25,360 bases of DNA. Origin: a virus (Duplodnaviria; Heunggongvirae; Uroviricota; Caudoviricetes). The notes beneath the pieces are model-generated. The model searched no databases and was not told the origin of the DNA. It saw only the letters and a list, made by a program, of their open reading frames with translations. A program made the position numbers and the translations under genes. The stretch lies in the IMG/VR virus record IMGVR_UViG_2529292905_000020, one strand, 5' to 3'. Position 1 is the first letter of the stretch. The number at the start of each line of letters is the position of its first letter. Positions 4,139 to 19,775 of the stretch are shown here, in pieces.

Positions 4139-4330
4139 TTAAAGACCTGCCGGGATTTCGTTATTATCCTGGTGAATAACTTTATCGACCGGGTAACAGT
4201 TACCGGGAATTTTCTGTTCGGTTGCTGCAGTCACACACTCCTGCATTGTCCTGTGAACACTGACTGCAATATCAACTGGCTCTCCGGAAACAAGAAAAAC
4301 TGTCAGAACAAGTGCAAATGCTGTATTCAT
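4139..4330 (-). CDS. ydfD: YdfD-like small protein (63 aa)
   Basis: Start chosen at internal ATG 4330 (MNTAFALVLTVFLVSG..., hydrophobic N-terminus), with AGGA 8 nt upstream. ATGA start/stop overlap with dicB. Sequence matches my recollection of Qin-prophage YdfD. Confidence 0.7.
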   Translation of the reverse strand: MNTAFALVLTVFLVSGEPVDIAVSVHRTMQECVTAATEQKIPGNCYPVDKVIHQDNNEIPAGL

Positions 4331-4515
4331 TGCCAGCATCCTTTTTGTATCGGACGTAAACGGGCCAGCATTGAAAGAATGCATATTTTATTTAATAACT
4401 CCCGTTCGTGTTTTCTCTTGTTAATGGCATCTTCAGTAAATACAGGGTTACTGATAGTGACACCAATTTCAAAACAACCTTCAGACGTATTAACGTTTGG
4501 TAATAACGTTTCCAT
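4327..4515 (-). CDS. dicB: DicB cell-division inhibitor (62 aa)
   Basis: METLLPNVNTSEGCFEIGVTISNPVFTEDAINKRKHERELLNKICILSMLARL... matches remembered DicB. GAGGA 7 nt upstream of ATG 4515. The ORF-track start at 4620 is probably an upstream extension. Confidence 0.85.
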   Translation of the reverse strand: METLLPNVNTSEGCFEIGVTISNPVFTEDAINKRKHERELLNKICILSMLARLRPIQKGCWQ

Positions 4516-4684
4516 TATCGCGTCCTCAACAATGAATTTTGTGATGCGGTGCCTGGTGCCTCCAGGTGACGTTAACCAGTTAACAATTAACGCCGGATAC
4601 AGTGAATCCCCCCATAACACTGTTTTTAGCTTTAACTGTTCCGCGTGCGCTTAGCCGCATTCACTGCATCACAAAATTCACTTT

Positions 4685-4740
4685 AAAAAGGGCGGACATC
4701 AGTTCATGGGCAAACAGATGCCGCCAAACGTCACCAGAAA
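4685..4740 (-). ncRNA. dicF: DicF-like small RNA
   Basis: Minus strand reads UUUCUGGUGACGUUUGGCGG (matches the DicF 5' region as I recall it), then a GGCGGCAUC...GAUGUCCGCC stem and CUUUUU. Lies just upstream of dicB as in Qin. Exact 5' and 3' ends are inferred. Confidence 0.75.
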
Positions 4741-5073
4741 ATTGATAACAGAGGGCGTTGCAGCGGGGTTGTCACTTAAGCGTATGGTCAACCTGACAAC
4801 CCGGTGTCCTCAACGGGGAAGGAATAACCCCGCCATACTTACCGCTGCGCCATTTCGCGGAGTGCCACAACCGGAAGCGCACGGTCGACGAAAATTTAAC
4901 GACAGGCTATCTATGAACCAGCAACCTCGCCGTGCGCTTTCGCGTTATGCTCTGACTTTTCAGAGAAATATCCTTTCAGTAAACTGTCAGTGCCGGATGT
5001 TCACCCGTGTCCGGCGCACGCACTCCACTTCACCCGTGGAGAACTCCTTAATTACCAACCCTCAGGAGGGTGA

Positions 5074-5714: not shown

Positions 5715-5933
5715 TTAACGTGGGTATGTAATCATTCTGGCAATGCTTAATGCCGCTGCTTTTTCCAGATTGGTGATATCCTGCTCCAGAGCGGACAGAT
5801 TTTCAGCCTGCTTAGCCCTGGCTTCATTGGCCCATTTCAGGTCCTGCACCGCCTTAATTTTCTGGTGCATCCACTCATAAAGTTCATCATCGGTATAGTC
5901 TGGCGCGATGATGACGGGGGCTCGTTTCTGCAT
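5715..5933 (-). CDS. ydfC: YdfC-like protein (72 aa)
   Basis: MQKRAPVIIAPDYTDDELYEWM...LSIARMITYPR matches my recollection of Qin YdfC. Same operon position. Confidence 0.7.
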   Translation of the reverse strand: MQKRAPVIIAPDYTDDELYEWMHQKIKAVQDLKWANEARAKQAENLSALEQDITNLEKAAALSIARMITYPR

Positions 5934-6568: not shown

Positions 6569-6976
6569 TTATTTATTTGCGCTTCTTTTGCGAGCTTTGA
6601 GTAGTTCTTCAAAAAGTTTGTTGAAATTCTCAACTCGAGCACGCATCTCTGACAACAGAGCCTTTTGCTCTGACTCAGGCAGTGCGTCGAACAGTTGAAG
6701 CAACTCTTTTTGATCTTCTGTCAGATTGACTGGCTGATTATCTGGGATCGGTTCGCCTGGTTGCTTATCTTCATCTCCAAAAAGAAGCCAAGTCGGCGAG
6801 CACTGAAGCGCCTGGCTCAGTGCGAATAATCTCTTCCCCGCTGGCTGTGTTTCATCTCTTTCCCATTGAGAAATTGTTACGTGAGCCACTTTGACCAGCT
6901 TACCTAATGCGGCCTGAGACAGTTTTAATTTTTTTCGCCTGTATAAGAGGCGAGCACCGAAGGTTTCGTTTTTCAT
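6569..6976 (-). CDS. dicA: DicA repressor (HTH XRE family, cI-like)
   Basis: 135-aa ORF MKNETFGARLLYRRKKLKLSQAALGKLVKVAHVTISQWERDETQP... with a clear HTH motif. Divergent from dicC. Confidence 0.9.
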   Translation of the reverse strand: MKNETFGARLLYRRKKLKLSQAALGKLVKVAHVTISQWERDETQPAGKRLFALSQALQCSPTWLLFGDEDKQPGEPIPDNQPVNLTEDQKELLQLFDALPESEQKALLSEMRARVENFNKLFEELLKARKRSANK

Positions 6977-10908: not shown

Positions 10909-11667
10909 ATGAGGAACATAATGGCAGGTTTTTTAATATTCCTGTCTTCTGCTGCTTATGCTGATATCAATCTGTATGGTCCTGGTGGCCCGCATACAGC
11001 CTTGCTTGATGCAGCCAAACTTTATGCCGAAAAAACAGGTATTATAGTGAACGTTCATTACGGCCCACAGAACAAATGGAATGAAGATGCCAAAAAAAAT
11101 GCAGATATCTTGTTTGGCGCATCAGAACAATCTGCTCTGGCTATCATTCGGGACCATAAAGACAGCTTCAGTGAAAAAGATATTCAGCCTCTTTATCTGC
11201 GAAAAAGTATTTTACTGGTAAAGAAAGGTAATCCTAAAAATATCCGGAGTATTGACGACCTGACCAGACCTGGGATTGGCGTAATTGTTAATGATGGTGG
11301 TGGTACCAGTAATACATCAGGCACTGGCGTCTGGGAAGATATTGCCGGACGTAAAGGGAATATAGAAACTGTCGCCGCAATCCGAAAAAATATTATTTTA
11401 TATGCGCCCAATAGCGGAACTGCACGTAAGGCTCTTGAGAATCAGCCTGGAGCAGATGTCTGGATAACCTGGGCTGACTGGGCAGCCAGTAATCCAGAAA
11501 TTGGTGATGTCGTGGAAATAGCGCCAGACTACGTGATATGGCGTGATATGAACATTACAGTACGTCAGGATGCAAATGATGAAACCCGTCGATTTGCAGA
11601 ATGGCTACAAACCGATGAAGCGGCGCCTGCATTCAAAAAATATGGCTGGACCAGGAAAGGCACTTGA
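10909..11667 (+). CDS. Periplasmic substrate-binding protein, ModA/TupA-like type II fold, with Sec signal peptide
   Basis: 252-aa ORF, AAGGAG upstream. N-terminal signal peptide (MRNIMAGFLIFLSSAAYA then D). Colinear resemblance to E. coli ModA over the whole length (C-terminal FAEWLQTDEAAPAFKKYGW vs FYDYLKGPQAAEIFKRYGF). AT-rich codon usage. No adjacent ABC permease or ATPase gene. Confidence 0.8.
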   Translation: MRNIMAGFLIFLSSAAYADINLYGPGGPHTALLDAAKLYAEKTGIIVNVHYGPQNKWNEDAKKNADILFGASEQSALAIIRDHKDSFSEKDIQPLYLRKSILLVKKGNPKNIRSIDDLTRPGIGVIVNDGGGTSNTSGTGVWEDIAGRKGNIETVAAIRKNIILYAPNSGTARKALENQPGADVWITWADWAASNPEIGDVVEIAPDYVIWRDMNITVRQDANDETRRFAEWLQTDEAAPAFKKYGWTRKGT

Positions 11668-12002
11668 CATCCTCGTCCTTCAGGACGTGGATTCTTTTTC
11701 CGGATGCCGCGCCAGCGGCATGTAGGGGCAGCTCACAAAACGGAAAAAATTGTACGCTAAGCCTCGCCAGGTGAACTGAATTCATTCCGATATGGGAATT
11801 CCCATATCGGGCGAAAACGGTTTGCTGTAACGGCAGAGTTAAGTAGGATTGCTGCGGGTGCTTGAGGCTATCTGCCTCGGGCATGAACACCAACGGCAGA
11901 TAGATAAAAGCCCCACCCGACTATAAATCGAAGTGAGGCCCCTATATGCTCGTCACATATAGATTGCCTCTTACGGACCGAAAGGTCAAGGAGAAGCAGG
12001 CT

Positions 12003-12158
12003 ATGAAGCAGCAAAAGGCGATGTTAATCGCCCTGATCGTCATCTGTTTAACCGTCATAGTGACGGCACTGGTAACGAGGAAAGACCTCTGCGAGGTACG
12101 AATCCGAACCGGCCAGACGGAGGTCGCTGTCTTCACAGCTTACGAACCTGAGGAGTAA
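12003..12158 (+). CDS. hokD: Hok/Gef-family membrane toxin (51 aa)
   Basis: MKQQKAMLIALIVICLTVIVTALVTRKDLCEVRIRTGQTEVAVFTAYEPEE is a Hok-family sequence, matching my recollection of HokD/RelF. Structured leader and 3' fold-back complement present. Confidence 0.85.
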   Translation: MKQQKAMLIALIVICLTVIVTALVTRKDLCEVRIRTGQTEVAVFTAYEPEE

Positions 12159-12254: not shown

Positions 12255-12386
12255 TTTTCAACGCGTTTGAAGTTCCGGACGGCGCCGGAATAGAATCAAA
12301 AATACTTAAGTAGCGCGCAGGGAGAAGAGGGATGGACCCCGAACTGAACCGCCCCGGTTTTCCTGGAGAGTGTTTTATCTGTGAAC

Positions 12387-13274
12387 TCAGGCTGCCAGAT
12401 CATCGTTTCTGATGGAAGCATAATAAGCTTTTTCTGCTTCTGCCGGAGGGATATGACCCAGCCTTCCCAGCAATCGTCGATTGTTATACCAGTCCACCCA
12501 CGTGAGTGTGGCCAGTTCCACTTCTGCACGGTTTTTCCAGCTCTTACGGTGTATTACCTCCGCTTTGTAAAGACCATTGATGCTCTCCGCCATCGCGTTG
12601 TCATACGAGTCACCTGTACTCCCTGTTGATGCCAGCAGTTTTGCTTCTTTTAGTCGCTCCGTATAGGCCAGTGATACATACTGAGAACCTTTATCACTGT
12701 GATGGACTGTGCCGGACGGCCGACGGGCCCACAACGCCTGCTCCAGTGCATCCAGCACGAATGTCGTTTCCATAGACGATGAGACTCGCCACCCCACGAT
12801 GCATCCGGCAAACACATCAATGATGAACGCCACATAGACGAAGCCCTGCCATGTGCTGACGTAAGTAAAATCAGCCACCCACAGCTGGTCAGGACGTTCT
12901 GCCACGAACTGACGGTTTACGCGGTCGCCTGCGGAAACGGCTTTCCGGCTGACGGTAGTACGGACCTTTTTACCCCGGAGAACACCGGCAAGTCCCATAA
13001 CCGCCATGAGGCGCGCCACTGTACATCTGGCCACCCTGATACCTTCGCGTAACAACTGGCGCCAGACTTTACGCACACCGTACACCTGATGATTTTCATC
13101 GTATACGCGCTGTATCTCTCTCTTCAGCCAGTCATCGCGCTGCGCACGGGCACTGCGTTTATCAGGATGATGTCGCTGTTGCTGACAGTGGTAATACGTT
13201 GACGGGGCAATATGCAGTTCACTGCATACCGGTCCGACCCCGTACTGCTCACGCAGCTTATCCAGCAGTGGCAT
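12387..13274 (-). CDS. IS629 transposase OrfB (DDE catalytic domain)
   Basis: 295-aa ORF with the IS3-family OrfB C-terminus (...LGHIPPAEAEKAYYASIRNDDLAA). Confidence 0.9.
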   Translation of the reverse strand: MPLLDKLREQYGVGPVCSELHIAPSTYYHCQQQRHHPDKRSARAQRDDWLKREIQRVYDENHQVYGVRKVWRQLLREGIRVARCTVARLMAVMGLAGVLRGKKVRTTVSRKAVSAGDRVNRQFVAERPDQLWVADFTYVSTWQGFVYVAFIIDVFAGCIVGWRVSSSMETTFVLDALEQALWARRPSGTVHHSDKGSQYVSLAYTERLKEAKLLASTGSTGDSYDNAMAESINGLYKAEVIHRKSWKNRAEVELATLTWVDWYNNRRLLGRLGHIPPAEAEKAYYASIRNDDLAA

Positions 13275-13600
13275 TATTTTTTCCAGAGGCGGTCGAACTC
13301 CGCCTTCGCAAAATAAGCGGAAGCCTGGCGAAGGATATCGTTACTGCGGCGCAGTTCACGATTTTCACGTTCCAGCTCTTTCAGACGCTGACGTTCAGCG
13401 GTGGTGAATCCACCATCACCACTCCCGGTATCCCGCTCATGCTGACGAACCCACACACGCAGAGTCTCTGGCGTACAGCCAATCTTTGGGGCAATGGAAC
13501 AAATTGCCGCCCATTGTGAGTCATATTCGCCCTGACTTTCCAGAACCATACGAACTGCCCGTTGACGGACCTCGGGGGAAAAACGTGTATTTTTAGTCAT
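13274..13600 (-). CDS. IS629 transposase OrfA (HTH)
   Basis: 108-aa [22 protein letters not shown]... matching remembered IS629 OrfA. Its stop overlaps the OrfB ATG (TAATG) beside an A6 run. Confidence 0.9.
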
Positions 13601-13692
13601 CCTGTTTACCTCTTTCTCAGGGAGTTTAGTCTCCAGGATTCCCGGGGCGGTTCAAACAGGGGGAGTGCTATTTATCTGGAAGGATTCTGTTG

Positions 13693-16601: not shown

Positions 16602-16677
16602 GGCCCTTTAGCTCAGTGGTGAGAGCGAGCGACTCATAATCGCCAGGTCGCTGGTTCAAATCCAGCAAGGGCCACCA
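16602..16677 (+). tRNA. ileZ: tRNA-Ile2 (anticodon CAU, lysidine type)
   Basis: 76-nt cloverleaf. Acceptor GGCCCTT/AAGGGCC, anticodon loop CUCAUAA, T-loop TTCAAAT, encoded CCA. Closely resembles E. coli ileX. Confidence 0.9.
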
Positions 16678-16767: not shown

Positions 16768-16841
16768 GCGTTGTTAGCTCAGCAGGACAGAGCAATTGCC
16801 TTCTAAGCAATCGGTCACTGGTTCGACTCCAGTACAACGCG
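16768..16841 (+). tRNA. argO: tRNA-Arg (anticodon UCU)
   Basis: 74-nt cloverleaf. Acceptor GCGTTGT/ACAACGC, D-stem GCTC/GAGC, anticodon stem ATTGC/GCAAT with loop CTTCTAA, T-arm ACTGG-TTCGACT-CCAGT. 3' CCA not encoded. The argO name is positional (third tRNA of the Stx-phage-type trio). Confidence 0.85.
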
Positions 16842-17610: not shown

Positions 17611-17811
17611 TTTTTTTGTTTGCTGTTTATTAAAAACACTTCTGCATGGTGAATCCCCCTGTGCGGTGGGGCAATCAGCAAGAAGGAATATGGGGTAATC
17701 GCGGATTCAGGTGCTGATACTGAATTCACCGGGAGGCACCCGGCACCATGCTTTGCCACAAAAGTGTTATTTCTGTTTTTCTCAAACTATCATCGTTATC
17801 CCTTTATTTTC

Positions 17812-17924: not shown

Positions 17925-19775
17925 ATGTCGATTAAACATTACGATGTTATCAGGGCGGCGTCGCCGTCAGACCTTGCGGAAAAGCTGACACACAAACTGA
18001 AAGAGGGCTGGCAGCCATACGGCGGACCGGTTGCCATTACGCCGTACACACTGATGCAGGCGGTGGCTATTGAAGGAGAGCCACAGGTCGGCCCTTCATC
18101 TGAGCCGGATTGGTACTACGTCATCGTACTGGCCGGGCAGTCCAATGCAATGGCTTACGGTGAAGGGCTTCCGCTGCCGGATTCATACGATGCTCCGGAT
18201 CCGCGCATTAAACAGCTGGCGCGCCGCAGTACAGTGACGCCGGGTGGGGCTGCCTGCAGATATAACGATATTATTCCGGCTGACCACTGTCTGCATGATG
18301 TGCAGGATATGAGTACGCTGAATCATCCGAGGGCTGACCTGAGCAAAGGGCAGTACGGCTGTGTCGGTCAGGGTTTACATATTGCCAAAAAACTGCTCCC
18401 GTATATCCCGAATAACGCGGGGATCCTGCTGGTACCATGCTGTCGTGGTGGTTCGGCATTTACCCAGGGCGCGGAGGGGACATTCAGCGAGTCCACGGGG
18501 GCCAGTCAGGATTCGGCACGCTGGGGGGTGGGCAAGCCGTTATATCAGGATCTGATTTCCCGCACAAAAGCGGCATTGCAGAAAAATCCCAAAAACGTTC
18601 TGCTGGCCGTCTGCTGGATGCAGGGTGAGTTTGACATGAGCGCCGCCACCCACGCACAGCAACCTGCGCTGTTTACAGCCATGCTGACACAGTTTCGTGC
18701 TGACCTCTCCGTGTTTAACGCGCAGTGCCATGGTGGCAGTGCTGCAGATGTGCCGTGGGTTTGTGGTGACACGACGTATTACTGGAAAAATACATACGCT
18801 ACCCAGTACGACACCGTGTACGGCGGGTATAAAAACAGGGAGAGTGAGGGCGTTTATTTTGTGCCCTTCATGACAGATGGTAACGGCGTCAATACCGCCA
18901 CTAACGCGCCGGCAGAAGATCCGGATATTCCGGCATCAGGATATTACGGTGCGGCATCGAGAACGAATGGAAACCAGGTATCATCAAACCGCCCGACACA
19001 TTTCAGTTCATGGGCGCGCAGGAGCATTATTCCGGATCGTCTGGCAACCGCTATTCTGAACGCAGCCGGGCGCACCTCAGCCTTCATCAGTGGTAAGGCA
19101 CCGGAAATCAAACCCTCGCCCGGCGGCAACACGCCATCGGGTCCGTCTGCAGATACGTCCGTTCGCACAATCTCCCTGCTGCCGGCAGCCGGAGAGGCTG
19201 CTGCGCAGGGCTGGAGCATTAAGGATGGCGGAATTCAGTTGTCAGATGGTGTATTTAAGATCACCAAGCAGAGCAATAAAACCTGGTCCCTGACGCATCC
19301 GGTGGATGACGCAATTACCCTGCTGACACAGGGCGGCAGACTGACCTGTAAGTTCCGCCTGTCAGGCGCACTGACCAACAATCAGTTCGGGCTGGGGATT
19401 TATCTGTATACGGATGCTCCCGTTCCTGATGGTGTGGCGATGACGGGTACCGGTAATCCGTTCCTGATGTCGTACTTCACTCAGACCACTGACGGCAGAG
19501 TGAATCTGATGCATCACAGGAAAGCCGGAAACACGAAGCTGGGGGAGTTCGGCGATTACGGTAACGACTGGCAGACGCTGGAGCTGGTGTTCACCGCCGG
19601 CAGTGCCACGGTTACTCCGAAACTGAATGGAGTGGCTGGCCCGGCATTCCAGGTTATAAAAGACAGTCTGACACTGGGACTGAATGCGCTGACGCTGACG
19701 GATGTTACAAAAAATGCAGCGTATGGCGTTGAGATAGAAAGTCTGATGCTGGAGATAAATGCACCGGCAGCATAA
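17925..19775 (+). CDS. nanS: NanS-p-like sialate O-acetylesterase (N-terminal DUF1737-like segment plus SGNH/SASA esterase domain)
   Basis: 616-aa ORF with GGGAGAAA upstream. VIVLAGQSNAMAYGEG matches the GQSN block of sialate O-acetylesterases. Sits where Stx prophages carry nanS-p next to stx. Confidence 0.8.
   Translation: MSIKHYDVIRAASPSDLAEKLTHKLKEGWQPYGGPVAITPYTLMQAVAIEGEPQVGPSSEPDWYYVIVLAGQSNAMAYGEGLPLPDSYDAPDPRIKQLARRSTVTPGGAACRYNDIIPADHCLHDVQDMSTLNHPRADLSKGQYGCVGQGLHIAKKLLPYIPNNAGILLVPCCRGGSAFTQGAEGTFSESTGASQDSARWGVGKPLYQDLISRTKAALQKNPKNVLLAVCWMQGEFDMSAATHAQQPALFTAMLTQFRADLSVFNAQCHGGSAADVPWVCGDTTYYWKNTYATQYDTVYGGYKNRESEGVYFVPFMTDGNGVNTATNAPAEDPDIPASGYYGAASRTNGNQVSSNRPTHFSSWARRSIIPDRLATAILNAAGRTSAFISGKAPEIKPSPGGNTPSGPSADTSVRTISLLPAAGEAAAQGWSIKDGGIQLSDGVFKITKQSNKTWSLTHPVDDAITLLTQGGRLTCKFRLSGALTNNQFGLGIYLYTDAPVPDGVAMTGTGNPFLMSYFTQTTDGRVNLMHHRKAGNTKLGEFGDYGNDWQTLELVFTAGSATVTPKLNGVAGPAFQVIKDSLTLGLNALTLTDVTKNAAYGVEIESLMLEINAPAA

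Follow-up and report, generated by a model that had tools for sequence, protein, structure and literature searches.

In EHEC, DicF exists in several apparently redundant copies and is studied for its control of cell division, of sugar metabolism and, via pchA, of the LEE virulence island; reviews treat it there as one multi-copy sRNA with "four copies". The locus described here raises the question of whether such copies are in fact a single regulator. It lies on the minus strand of a 25,360-nt stretch of viral DNA (IMG/VR record IMGVR_UViG_2529292905_000020), the whole of which is referred to below as the window, and its RNA begins and ends as DicF of E. coli K-12 does, with a different sequence in between. 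We examined the identity of this RNA, the nature of the change it has undergone, and the consequences predicted for its pairing with known DicF targets.

Identity and fold of the variant RNA

Read 5' to 3' from position 4740 to 4685, the RNA is UUUCUGGUGACGUUUGGCGGCAUCUGUUUGCCCAUGAACUGAUGUCCGCCCUUUUU; RNA nucleotide n corresponds to window coordinate 4741-n, and the parts of the RNA are collected with their surroundings in Table 1. The original prediction, which raised the concern that the K-12 sequence might prove identical, described a DicF variant whose 5' seed is conserved and whose body has diverged. Comparison with the annotated K-12 ncRNA dicF (NC_000913.3 1649382-1649434) supports this description and identifies a homologue at the DicF locus. 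The first 20 nt, said to match DicF, do so without exception; the GGCGG/CCGCC stem and U-tract, said to be retained, are indeed kept, CCGCCC and the U-tract being identical to K-12; and the loop and internal sequence, said to differ, is distinct from the annotated K-12 body at 15 of the 27 columns in between (44.4% identity), the variant being 2 nt shorter. K-12 DicF carries an anti-Shine-Dalgarno motif, ACUCC, in its loop; the variant lacks it and has GCCCAUGAAC as its loop-specific stretch. The window contains a single copy of the 20-nt seed, and 0.01 matches would be expected by chance even with up to three mismatches allowed.

The two RNAs share one structural plan. In the variant, a 15-nt unpaired arm leads into a hairpin (folding energy -17.3 kcal/mol, z -2.8), with U5 at the 3' end; in K-12 DicF, the same succession of arm, hairpin and U-tract has a hairpin of -15.9 kcal/mol. 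The arm of the variant (nt 1-15, UUUCUGGUGACGUUU) is the K-12 dicF arm, is unpaired in both the MFE and the centroid structure, and constitutes a single-stranded seed for xylR-type targets. The hairpin is built on its GGCGG/CCGCC base, continued by CAUC/GAUG and GUU/AAC, and contains a bulged U and a U-U mismatch. A simple terminator scan did not flag it, because the bulge breaks the stem and loop rules of that scan; absence of a hairpin was rejected as the cause. The U-tract is likely to serve as the Hfq-binding 3' tail as well.

The Rfam DicF model (RF00039), to which the original prediction had looked for a check, bears out the homology in one respect and withholds formal membership in another: the match is significant and full-length (43.5 bits, local E 2.4e-8, 4690-4739 on the minus strand, model positions 1-52), but the score is below the gathering score of 48, the control K-12 DicF reaching 76.7 bits. 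A scan of the window at gathering thresholds reports ALIL, sok, STnc100 and two tRNAs and no DicF, the match surfacing under an E-value threshold only, and default Rfam-based annotation therefore misses the variant. An Rfam-based RNA-seq/RIBO-seq table for EDL933 (PMC5331693) lists four DicF loci, and the variant is not among them. The entry "DicF_3" of that table is a Rac-type hairpin between sieB and kilR (L162:18460-18515; EDL933 NZ_CP008957.1 ~2,168,460), which has an unrelated 5' arm and, at 39.1 bits, a lower score than the unlisted variant. A low score was rejected as the reason for the missing ncRNA annotation in RefSeq O55:H7 genomes, as PGAP omits K-12-type DicF too; since it annotates neither type, the missing annotation says nothing. 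Models of the prophage anti-sRNAs AgvB and AsxR (RF02702/RF02703) gave no match at the locus (4500-4950), even at E<=10.

Table 1. Coordinates of the variant RNA, its parts, neighbouring features and a tentative pairing site in the window
Feature	Position	Strand	Basis
DicF-variant RNA gene, 56 nt including U5	4685..4740	-	Sequence, Rfam DicF match, fold
Nt 1-20, same as K-12 DicF	4721..4740	-	Alignment to annotated K-12 dicF
Terminator hairpin, nt 16-50	4691..4725	-	MFE -17.3 kcal/mol, z -2.8
Replaced patch, hairpin top, nt 21-45, CAUCUGUUUGCCCAUGAACUGAUGU	4696..4720	-	Alignment with K-12 and CP-933P
U-tract of intrinsic terminator, same in K-12	4685..4689	-	Sequence
Non-coding leader upstream of DicF, ~320 nt, conserved	4741..5060	-	~97% identical to K-12 Qin leader
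DicF-dicB spacer, sub-threshold STnc100-like match	4537..4688	-	STnc100 (RF02076), 31.9 bits
dicB, cell-division inhibitor	4327..4515	-	RefSeq of identical O55:H7 stretch; tblastn 89% to K-12 DicB
ydfD-like DUF1482 gene	4139..4330	-	Annotation; tblastn 94% to K-12 YdfD
ydfC, upstream operon gene	5715..5933	-	Annotation; tblastn 94%
DicA-like repressor gene, immunity region	6569..6976	-	ORF; HTH protein in RefSeq; 63% to K-12 DicA
Tentative site complementary to hairpin top, in NanS-p-type esterase ORF 17925-19775	18997..19022	+	Duplex and shuffles

Operon and prophage context

The window is an E. coli lambdoid prophage of the CP-933O-like kind, integrated next to ompW. Over its first 10.1 kb, identity is 99.5% with O55:H7 CB9615 and 97-99.8% with the CP-933O copy beside ompW in EDL933; the 801 nt surrounding the variant match O55:H7 genomes at 100% and those of O157:H7 and O121 at 99.8%. 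On the minus strand, the dicA-like repressor gene (called dicA in PPompW_132418, a collinear phage record) is followed by two small ORFs, ydfC, a 135-aa ORF, the leader of ~320 nt and the RNA, and then by a 175-nt spacer, dicB (starting 175 nt downstream of the hairpin), the ydfD-like gene, an exonuclease gene, xis and int. The variant accordingly sits between ydfC and dicB, the position of DicF in the Qin dicB operon. The last 60 or more nucleotides of the leader are the same as in K-12 and provide the processing-site context UCAAU/UUUCUGG (the slash marking the site); the leader is common to all Qin-type loci. The EDL933 CP-933O copy (L160) has an indel of ~70-82 nt in the leader, at -200 to -119 from DicF nt 1 (about 4860-4929 in the window), and this might affect precursor processing.

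Several further features of the prophage were observed. The STnc100-like match in the spacer is partial (model positions 14-157) and scores below the gathering score of 47. Similar elements also follow K-12 DicF (L002:4447-4587, 34.1 bits) and the Rac-type hairpin (L162:18517-18703, 35.5 bits), and the late region contains a complete STnc100 member (17615-17787, 100.8 bits) that has motifs such as CACCUGGAGGCACCAGGCAC in common with the spacer; one structured element seems to follow terminators in early-left and late operons alike. Two tRNA genes (16602-16674 and 16768-16841, plus strand), annotated as tRNA-Ile and tRNA-Arg by RefSeq at the matching place in EDL933, lie upstream of this STnc100 copy and of the esterase gene listed in Table 1, a layout usual for Stx-type lambdoid late regions, and no stx gene was seen in the window. 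An IS3-family element of ~1.3 kb (12345-13654), inserted relative to EDL933 CP-933O, carries ORFs at 12387-13274 and 13274-13600 on the minus strand with an ALIL frameshift pseudoknot at 13203-13319, and lies a few hundred bases downstream of a hok/sok module (sok 11856-12005). An ORF of 252 aa (10909-11667, plus strand) occupies the place at which paa, an AcfC-family adhesin gene, is annotated in EDL933 CP-933O, and on this basis the prophage carries a virulence-associated cargo gene.

A discrete patch in conserved surroundings

Alignment of ~520 nt around the window copy and the K-12 copy sets the divergence of the body against flanks that are 96.2% identical (18 differences in 469 columns; body versus flank, Fisher P 7e-13). 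A closer comparison is afforded by CP-933P of EDL933, which carries a K-12-type DicF, yet encodes DicB and DUF1482 proteins identical to those of the variant locus. These two prophages share ~99% identity over ~2.3 kb (-300 to +2000, counted from DicF nt 1), yet the RNAs have 15 differences, at nt 21, 25, 29-31, 34 and 38-45, being otherwise identical. The change reads in these alignments as a discrete replaced patch confined to the hairpin top. Gradual drift was rejected, the differences making a sharply bounded patch, and so was an assembly artefact, the same 56 nt being present in 289 complete E. coli genomes. No donor of the patch was identified among the viral-contig matches listed; the Rac-type hairpin, considered as one, has the same stem and an unrelated loop.

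Those 289 genomes, among the 5,426 complete E. coli genomes searched with the variant 56-mer, are mostly O157:H7 and O55:H7 and nearly always hold it as a single copy; 287 of the copies are >=99% identical. The variant is present in essentially the whole O157:H7/O55:H7 lineage sampled. K-12-type DicF has 6,400 occurrences, spread over 3,968 of these genomes. When viral contigs and species-representative genomes were scanned with the seed, the DicF arm was followed by one of just two distinct bodies, with nothing intermediate between them; the scan also placed the variant in E. albertii. Among 50,697 phage records the variant is absent and K-12-type DicF is present in 22; a 2016 study had obtained no DicF hits among about 2,000 phage genomes (PMC5069750). 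The "PPompW" prophages carry K-12-type DicF at the same position of a collinear genome, and phage and prophage records with this type include Stx2a-converting phages (H81-H90, e.g. LR597641.1, LC567822.1). In EDL933, K-12-type DicF occupies CP-933M, the second half of CP-933O and CP-933P, and the variant is additionally present next to ompW, in the CP-933O copy there (NZ_CP008957.1 ~1,847,266-1,847,317). Such co-residence with K-12-type copies, found in O157:H7 genomes, would allow divergence of one copy.

Predicted pairing with DicF targets

Different parts of DicF serve different targets: pairing with the ftsZ RBS involves the 3' part and pairing with xylR the 5' end, the 5' arm being sufficient for xylR repression (PMC5069750). 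DicF also pairs inside the pchA coding sequence (PMC13138055). We predicted targets from windowed duplexes and opening energies and compared site-restricted pairing with that of composition-matched shuffles, in energy terms that leave Hfq and kinetics out of account. As a positive control, K-12 DicF recovered the published ftsZ site (-28..+1 with nt 24-53), the manX site (+34..+53 with nt 35-54) and, through its 5' arm, the site on xylR; its pch site was found at +15..+38 with nt 26-52.

The variant keeps the xylR site (-1..+21 with nt 4-24, accessibility included), and the duplex of the arm with xylR has the same energy, -20.3 kcal/mol, in variant and K-12. On the remaining targets it has no favourable site once accessibility is included (ftsZ +3.5, manX +1.7, pykA +3.4 and pch +8.2 kcal/mol). 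Hybridisation of the body alone falls from -27.9 kcal/mol in K-12 to -17.0 in the variant for ftsZ, from -33.9 to -18.2 for manX, from -26.4 to -13.1 for pykA, and from -27.1 to -18.9 for pch. The variant body is matched or surpassed by 24-55% of shuffles, the K-12 body by <=1.7%. The antisense complementarity to the ftsZ RBS is missing from the variant in silico, its -17.0 kcal/mol standing beside a shuffle mean of -16.8; when ftsZ pairing is compared across the wider family of hairpins described below, the variant has a z of 0.0 and K-12-type bodies alone stand out. Compensation on the host side, in the ftsZ leader, was rejected, as the EDL933 leader is identical to that of K-12. The original prediction that target pairing by the 3' region may differ is thus given substance in silico: ftsZ, manX, pykA and pch fall to shuffle level, and the xylR site is retained.

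A paralogue with a probable division of functions

The best explanation of these findings, and one that we hold to be probable, is that the variant is a DicF paralogue in which the functions of the arm and the terminator role are kept and body pairing with ftsZ, manX, pykA and pchA is lost. It resembles K-12 Qin DicF (RF00039) in its dicB-operon locus, nt 1-20, stem base, U-tract, leader, spacer and fold, and differs from it at nt 21-45 (15 differences), in the anti-SD motif, in its Rfam score and in the absence of ftsZ, manX, pykA and pch complementarity in silico. If the variant is made as K-12 DicF is, transcription of the operon would end at the hairpin and U-tract of the RNA itself. Because the leader is conserved, cleavage at the K-12 site would generate the 5' end, to yield a product of about 51-56 nt; the hairpin would still work as a terminator or attenuator in front of dicB. 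With its single-stranded 5' arm unchanged, the RNA should retain its action on targets that depend on the arm, xylR among them. As nt 21-45, the region that K-12 DicF uses for the ftsZ RBS, the manX CDS, pykA and the pchA CDS, are replaced, these activities should be lost.

Computation establishes the homology, synteny, fold and distribution of the variant, the patch-like replacement and the loss of complementarity. We infer transcription, processing and Hfq binding from flanks identical with those of K-12, and regulation by the variant is a prediction. As to two further traits of DicF, its production by termination with RNase E/RNase III processing and its Hfq dependence, what the sequence shows is conservation of the processing context and of the U-tail. 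Expression of the variant was not found in the EDL933 RNA-seq/RIBO-seq table and its supplements (PMC5331693) or in the supplements of PMC4104026, DicF is not mentioned in the Hfq-CRAC and RNase E-CLASH papers and supplements examined, and the variant sequence string did not appear in the literature searched. Since the flanks are conserved to the same degree, recent common ancestry may be all that the conserved arm reflects.

A wider family of terminator hairpins

The setting of the variant became apparent when viral contigs were scanned for its stem with any loop (GGCGGCATCNG, 8-32 nt, CNGATGTCCGCC), which returned at least 120 loci. A common stem, GGCGGCAUC.G...C.GAUGUCCGCC, is followed by a U-tract and then by the conserved spacer, a pattern to which the variant conforms. 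Among the matches listed, this stem is combined with several loops and preceded by at least 22 distinct 15-nt sequences, roughly a dozen of them clearly unrelated. Where a listed locus extends far enough downstream, the hairpin is nearly always located 170-200 nt ahead of dicB or kilR. The pairing of arm, hairpin and kill gene varies from locus to locus (loci L168-L285, e.g. L173, L188, L190, L215 and L232): a Rac-type arm is associated with dicB in L190, a DicF arm with a kilR-like gene in L148, and in L188 the leader is kept with a different arm. In the alignment of Qin-type loci, the leader and about 60 nt downstream are almost perfectly alike, and it is the arm and the hairpin top that vary. 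The variant loop occurs, among the matches listed, only with the DicF arm or with a form of it that lacks a single G (UUUCUG-UGACG), the latter accompanying the variant body in L225 and L267; this deletion would be expected to alter the seed.

Two systems invite comparison. The Rac-type hairpin upstream of kilR has a near-identical stem (GGCGGCAUCAG...CUGAUGU-CCGCCC), a U-tract and an STnc100-like spacer, and is likewise located ~180 nt upstream of a division-inhibitor gene; it differs from the variant in its arm (GCUGUGUGUAGUCCU) and leader, which are unrelated, in a different and longer loop (39.1 bits with the DicF model), and in the replacement of dicB by kilR in most loci. The presence of dicF-like sequences in Rac was reportedly first described by Faubladier and Bouche in 1994. 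The hairpin family also resembles, in architecture only, the AgvB/AsxR anti-sRNAs (EcOnc01-03) of prophages, in which a conserved 3' terminator region of ~42 nt is joined to variable 5' regions of 14-18 nt (Tree et al. 2014, PMC4104026). In both cases a conserved terminator is combined with a variable 5' region; the two have no sequence relationship, and AgvB/AsxR belong to the late region, as opposed to the early-left operon of the variant.

This family lends some weight to a narrower role, the chief rival to the paralogue reading and one that we nevertheless consider unlikely, in which the locus would act as a terminator or attenuator gating dicB in the early-left operon, the released RNA having no function in trans and the arm being an ancestral leftover. 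That many prophages have the same stem behind unrelated arms, 170-200 nt ahead of dicB or kilR, is in keeping with such a role, as are an arm no better conserved than its flanks, the 1-nt arm deletion in L225 and L267, and the failure to find variant expression in the EDL933 table and supplements examined. Against it, exactly this architecture is found in K-12 DicF, whose Hfq-dependent regulation is proven and whose 5' arm suffices for repression of xylR (PMC5069750), and the arm, processing context and U-tail of the variant are unchanged from K-12.

A second alternative, which we regard as doubtful, is that the new hairpin top has acquired new targets. The sole candidate here is a site in the mRNAs of NanS-p-type esterases of the prophage late region (Table 1), the esterase ORF in the window (Pfam DUF1737+SASA+DUF6645) encoding a NanS-p-type sialate O-acetylesterase. 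The hairpin top and the sense strand of this ORF form a 21-bp duplex with 13 contiguous Watson-Crick pairs and -31.3 kcal/mol, an energy reached, within the window, by 0.75% of 400 shuffles, with the 13-nt exact complement reached by 0.7% of 3,000. The K-12 body has nothing comparable (P 0.065), the site is identical in five EDL933 paralogues, and its energy is close to that of the validated, body-mediated duplex of DicF with manX, which also lies inside a coding region. However, the comparison was made post hoc over 25 kb only, and a genome of 5.4 Mb should give about 1-2 chance matches as strong; within the coding sequence the site lies at about 1.07 kb, and a hairpin of -17 kcal/mol must open for pairing. 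The site is, moreover, coding-constrained and hence yields no covariation signal. The complementarity could represent a target, a trace of the origin of the patch, or chance.

Finally, it is most improbable that the variant is a fully redundant DicF copy still repressing ftsZ, manX and pchA through alternative pairing, as the treatment of EHEC copies in the literature and some long-range duplexes of the full-length variant with unrestricted loops might suggest: no favourable site exists on ftsZ, manX, pykA or pch with accessibility included, and the body has the energies of its shuffles and has lost the ACUCC motif.

Implications for prophage sRNA evolution

The probable paralogue described above, with its sharply bounded 25-nt replacement in flanks that are ~99% identical, together with related hairpins behind unrelated arms, suggests that the specificity of prophage sRNAs evolves by the swapping of small patches. 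A bolder extension, which we offer as speculative and improbable as it stands, would regard the arm and the hairpin top as exchangeable specificity cassettes in a conserved frame of leader, terminator and spacer ahead of prophage kill genes, and the O157/O55 variant as a reassortant whose body is retargeted from the host mRNAs ftsZ, manX and pchA to the conserved site in the multi-copy prophage nanS-p mRNAs. Were that so, pathogenic E. coli would carry functionally distinct DicF paralogues, and not four redundant copies. From the more immediate perspective of DicF function in EHEC, deletion and complementation experiments or copy counts that ignore the variant, or that equate the copies, could be misread. 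The variant itself is predicted to keep the functions of the 5' arm only, and would thus be a natural separation-of-function allele of DicF.
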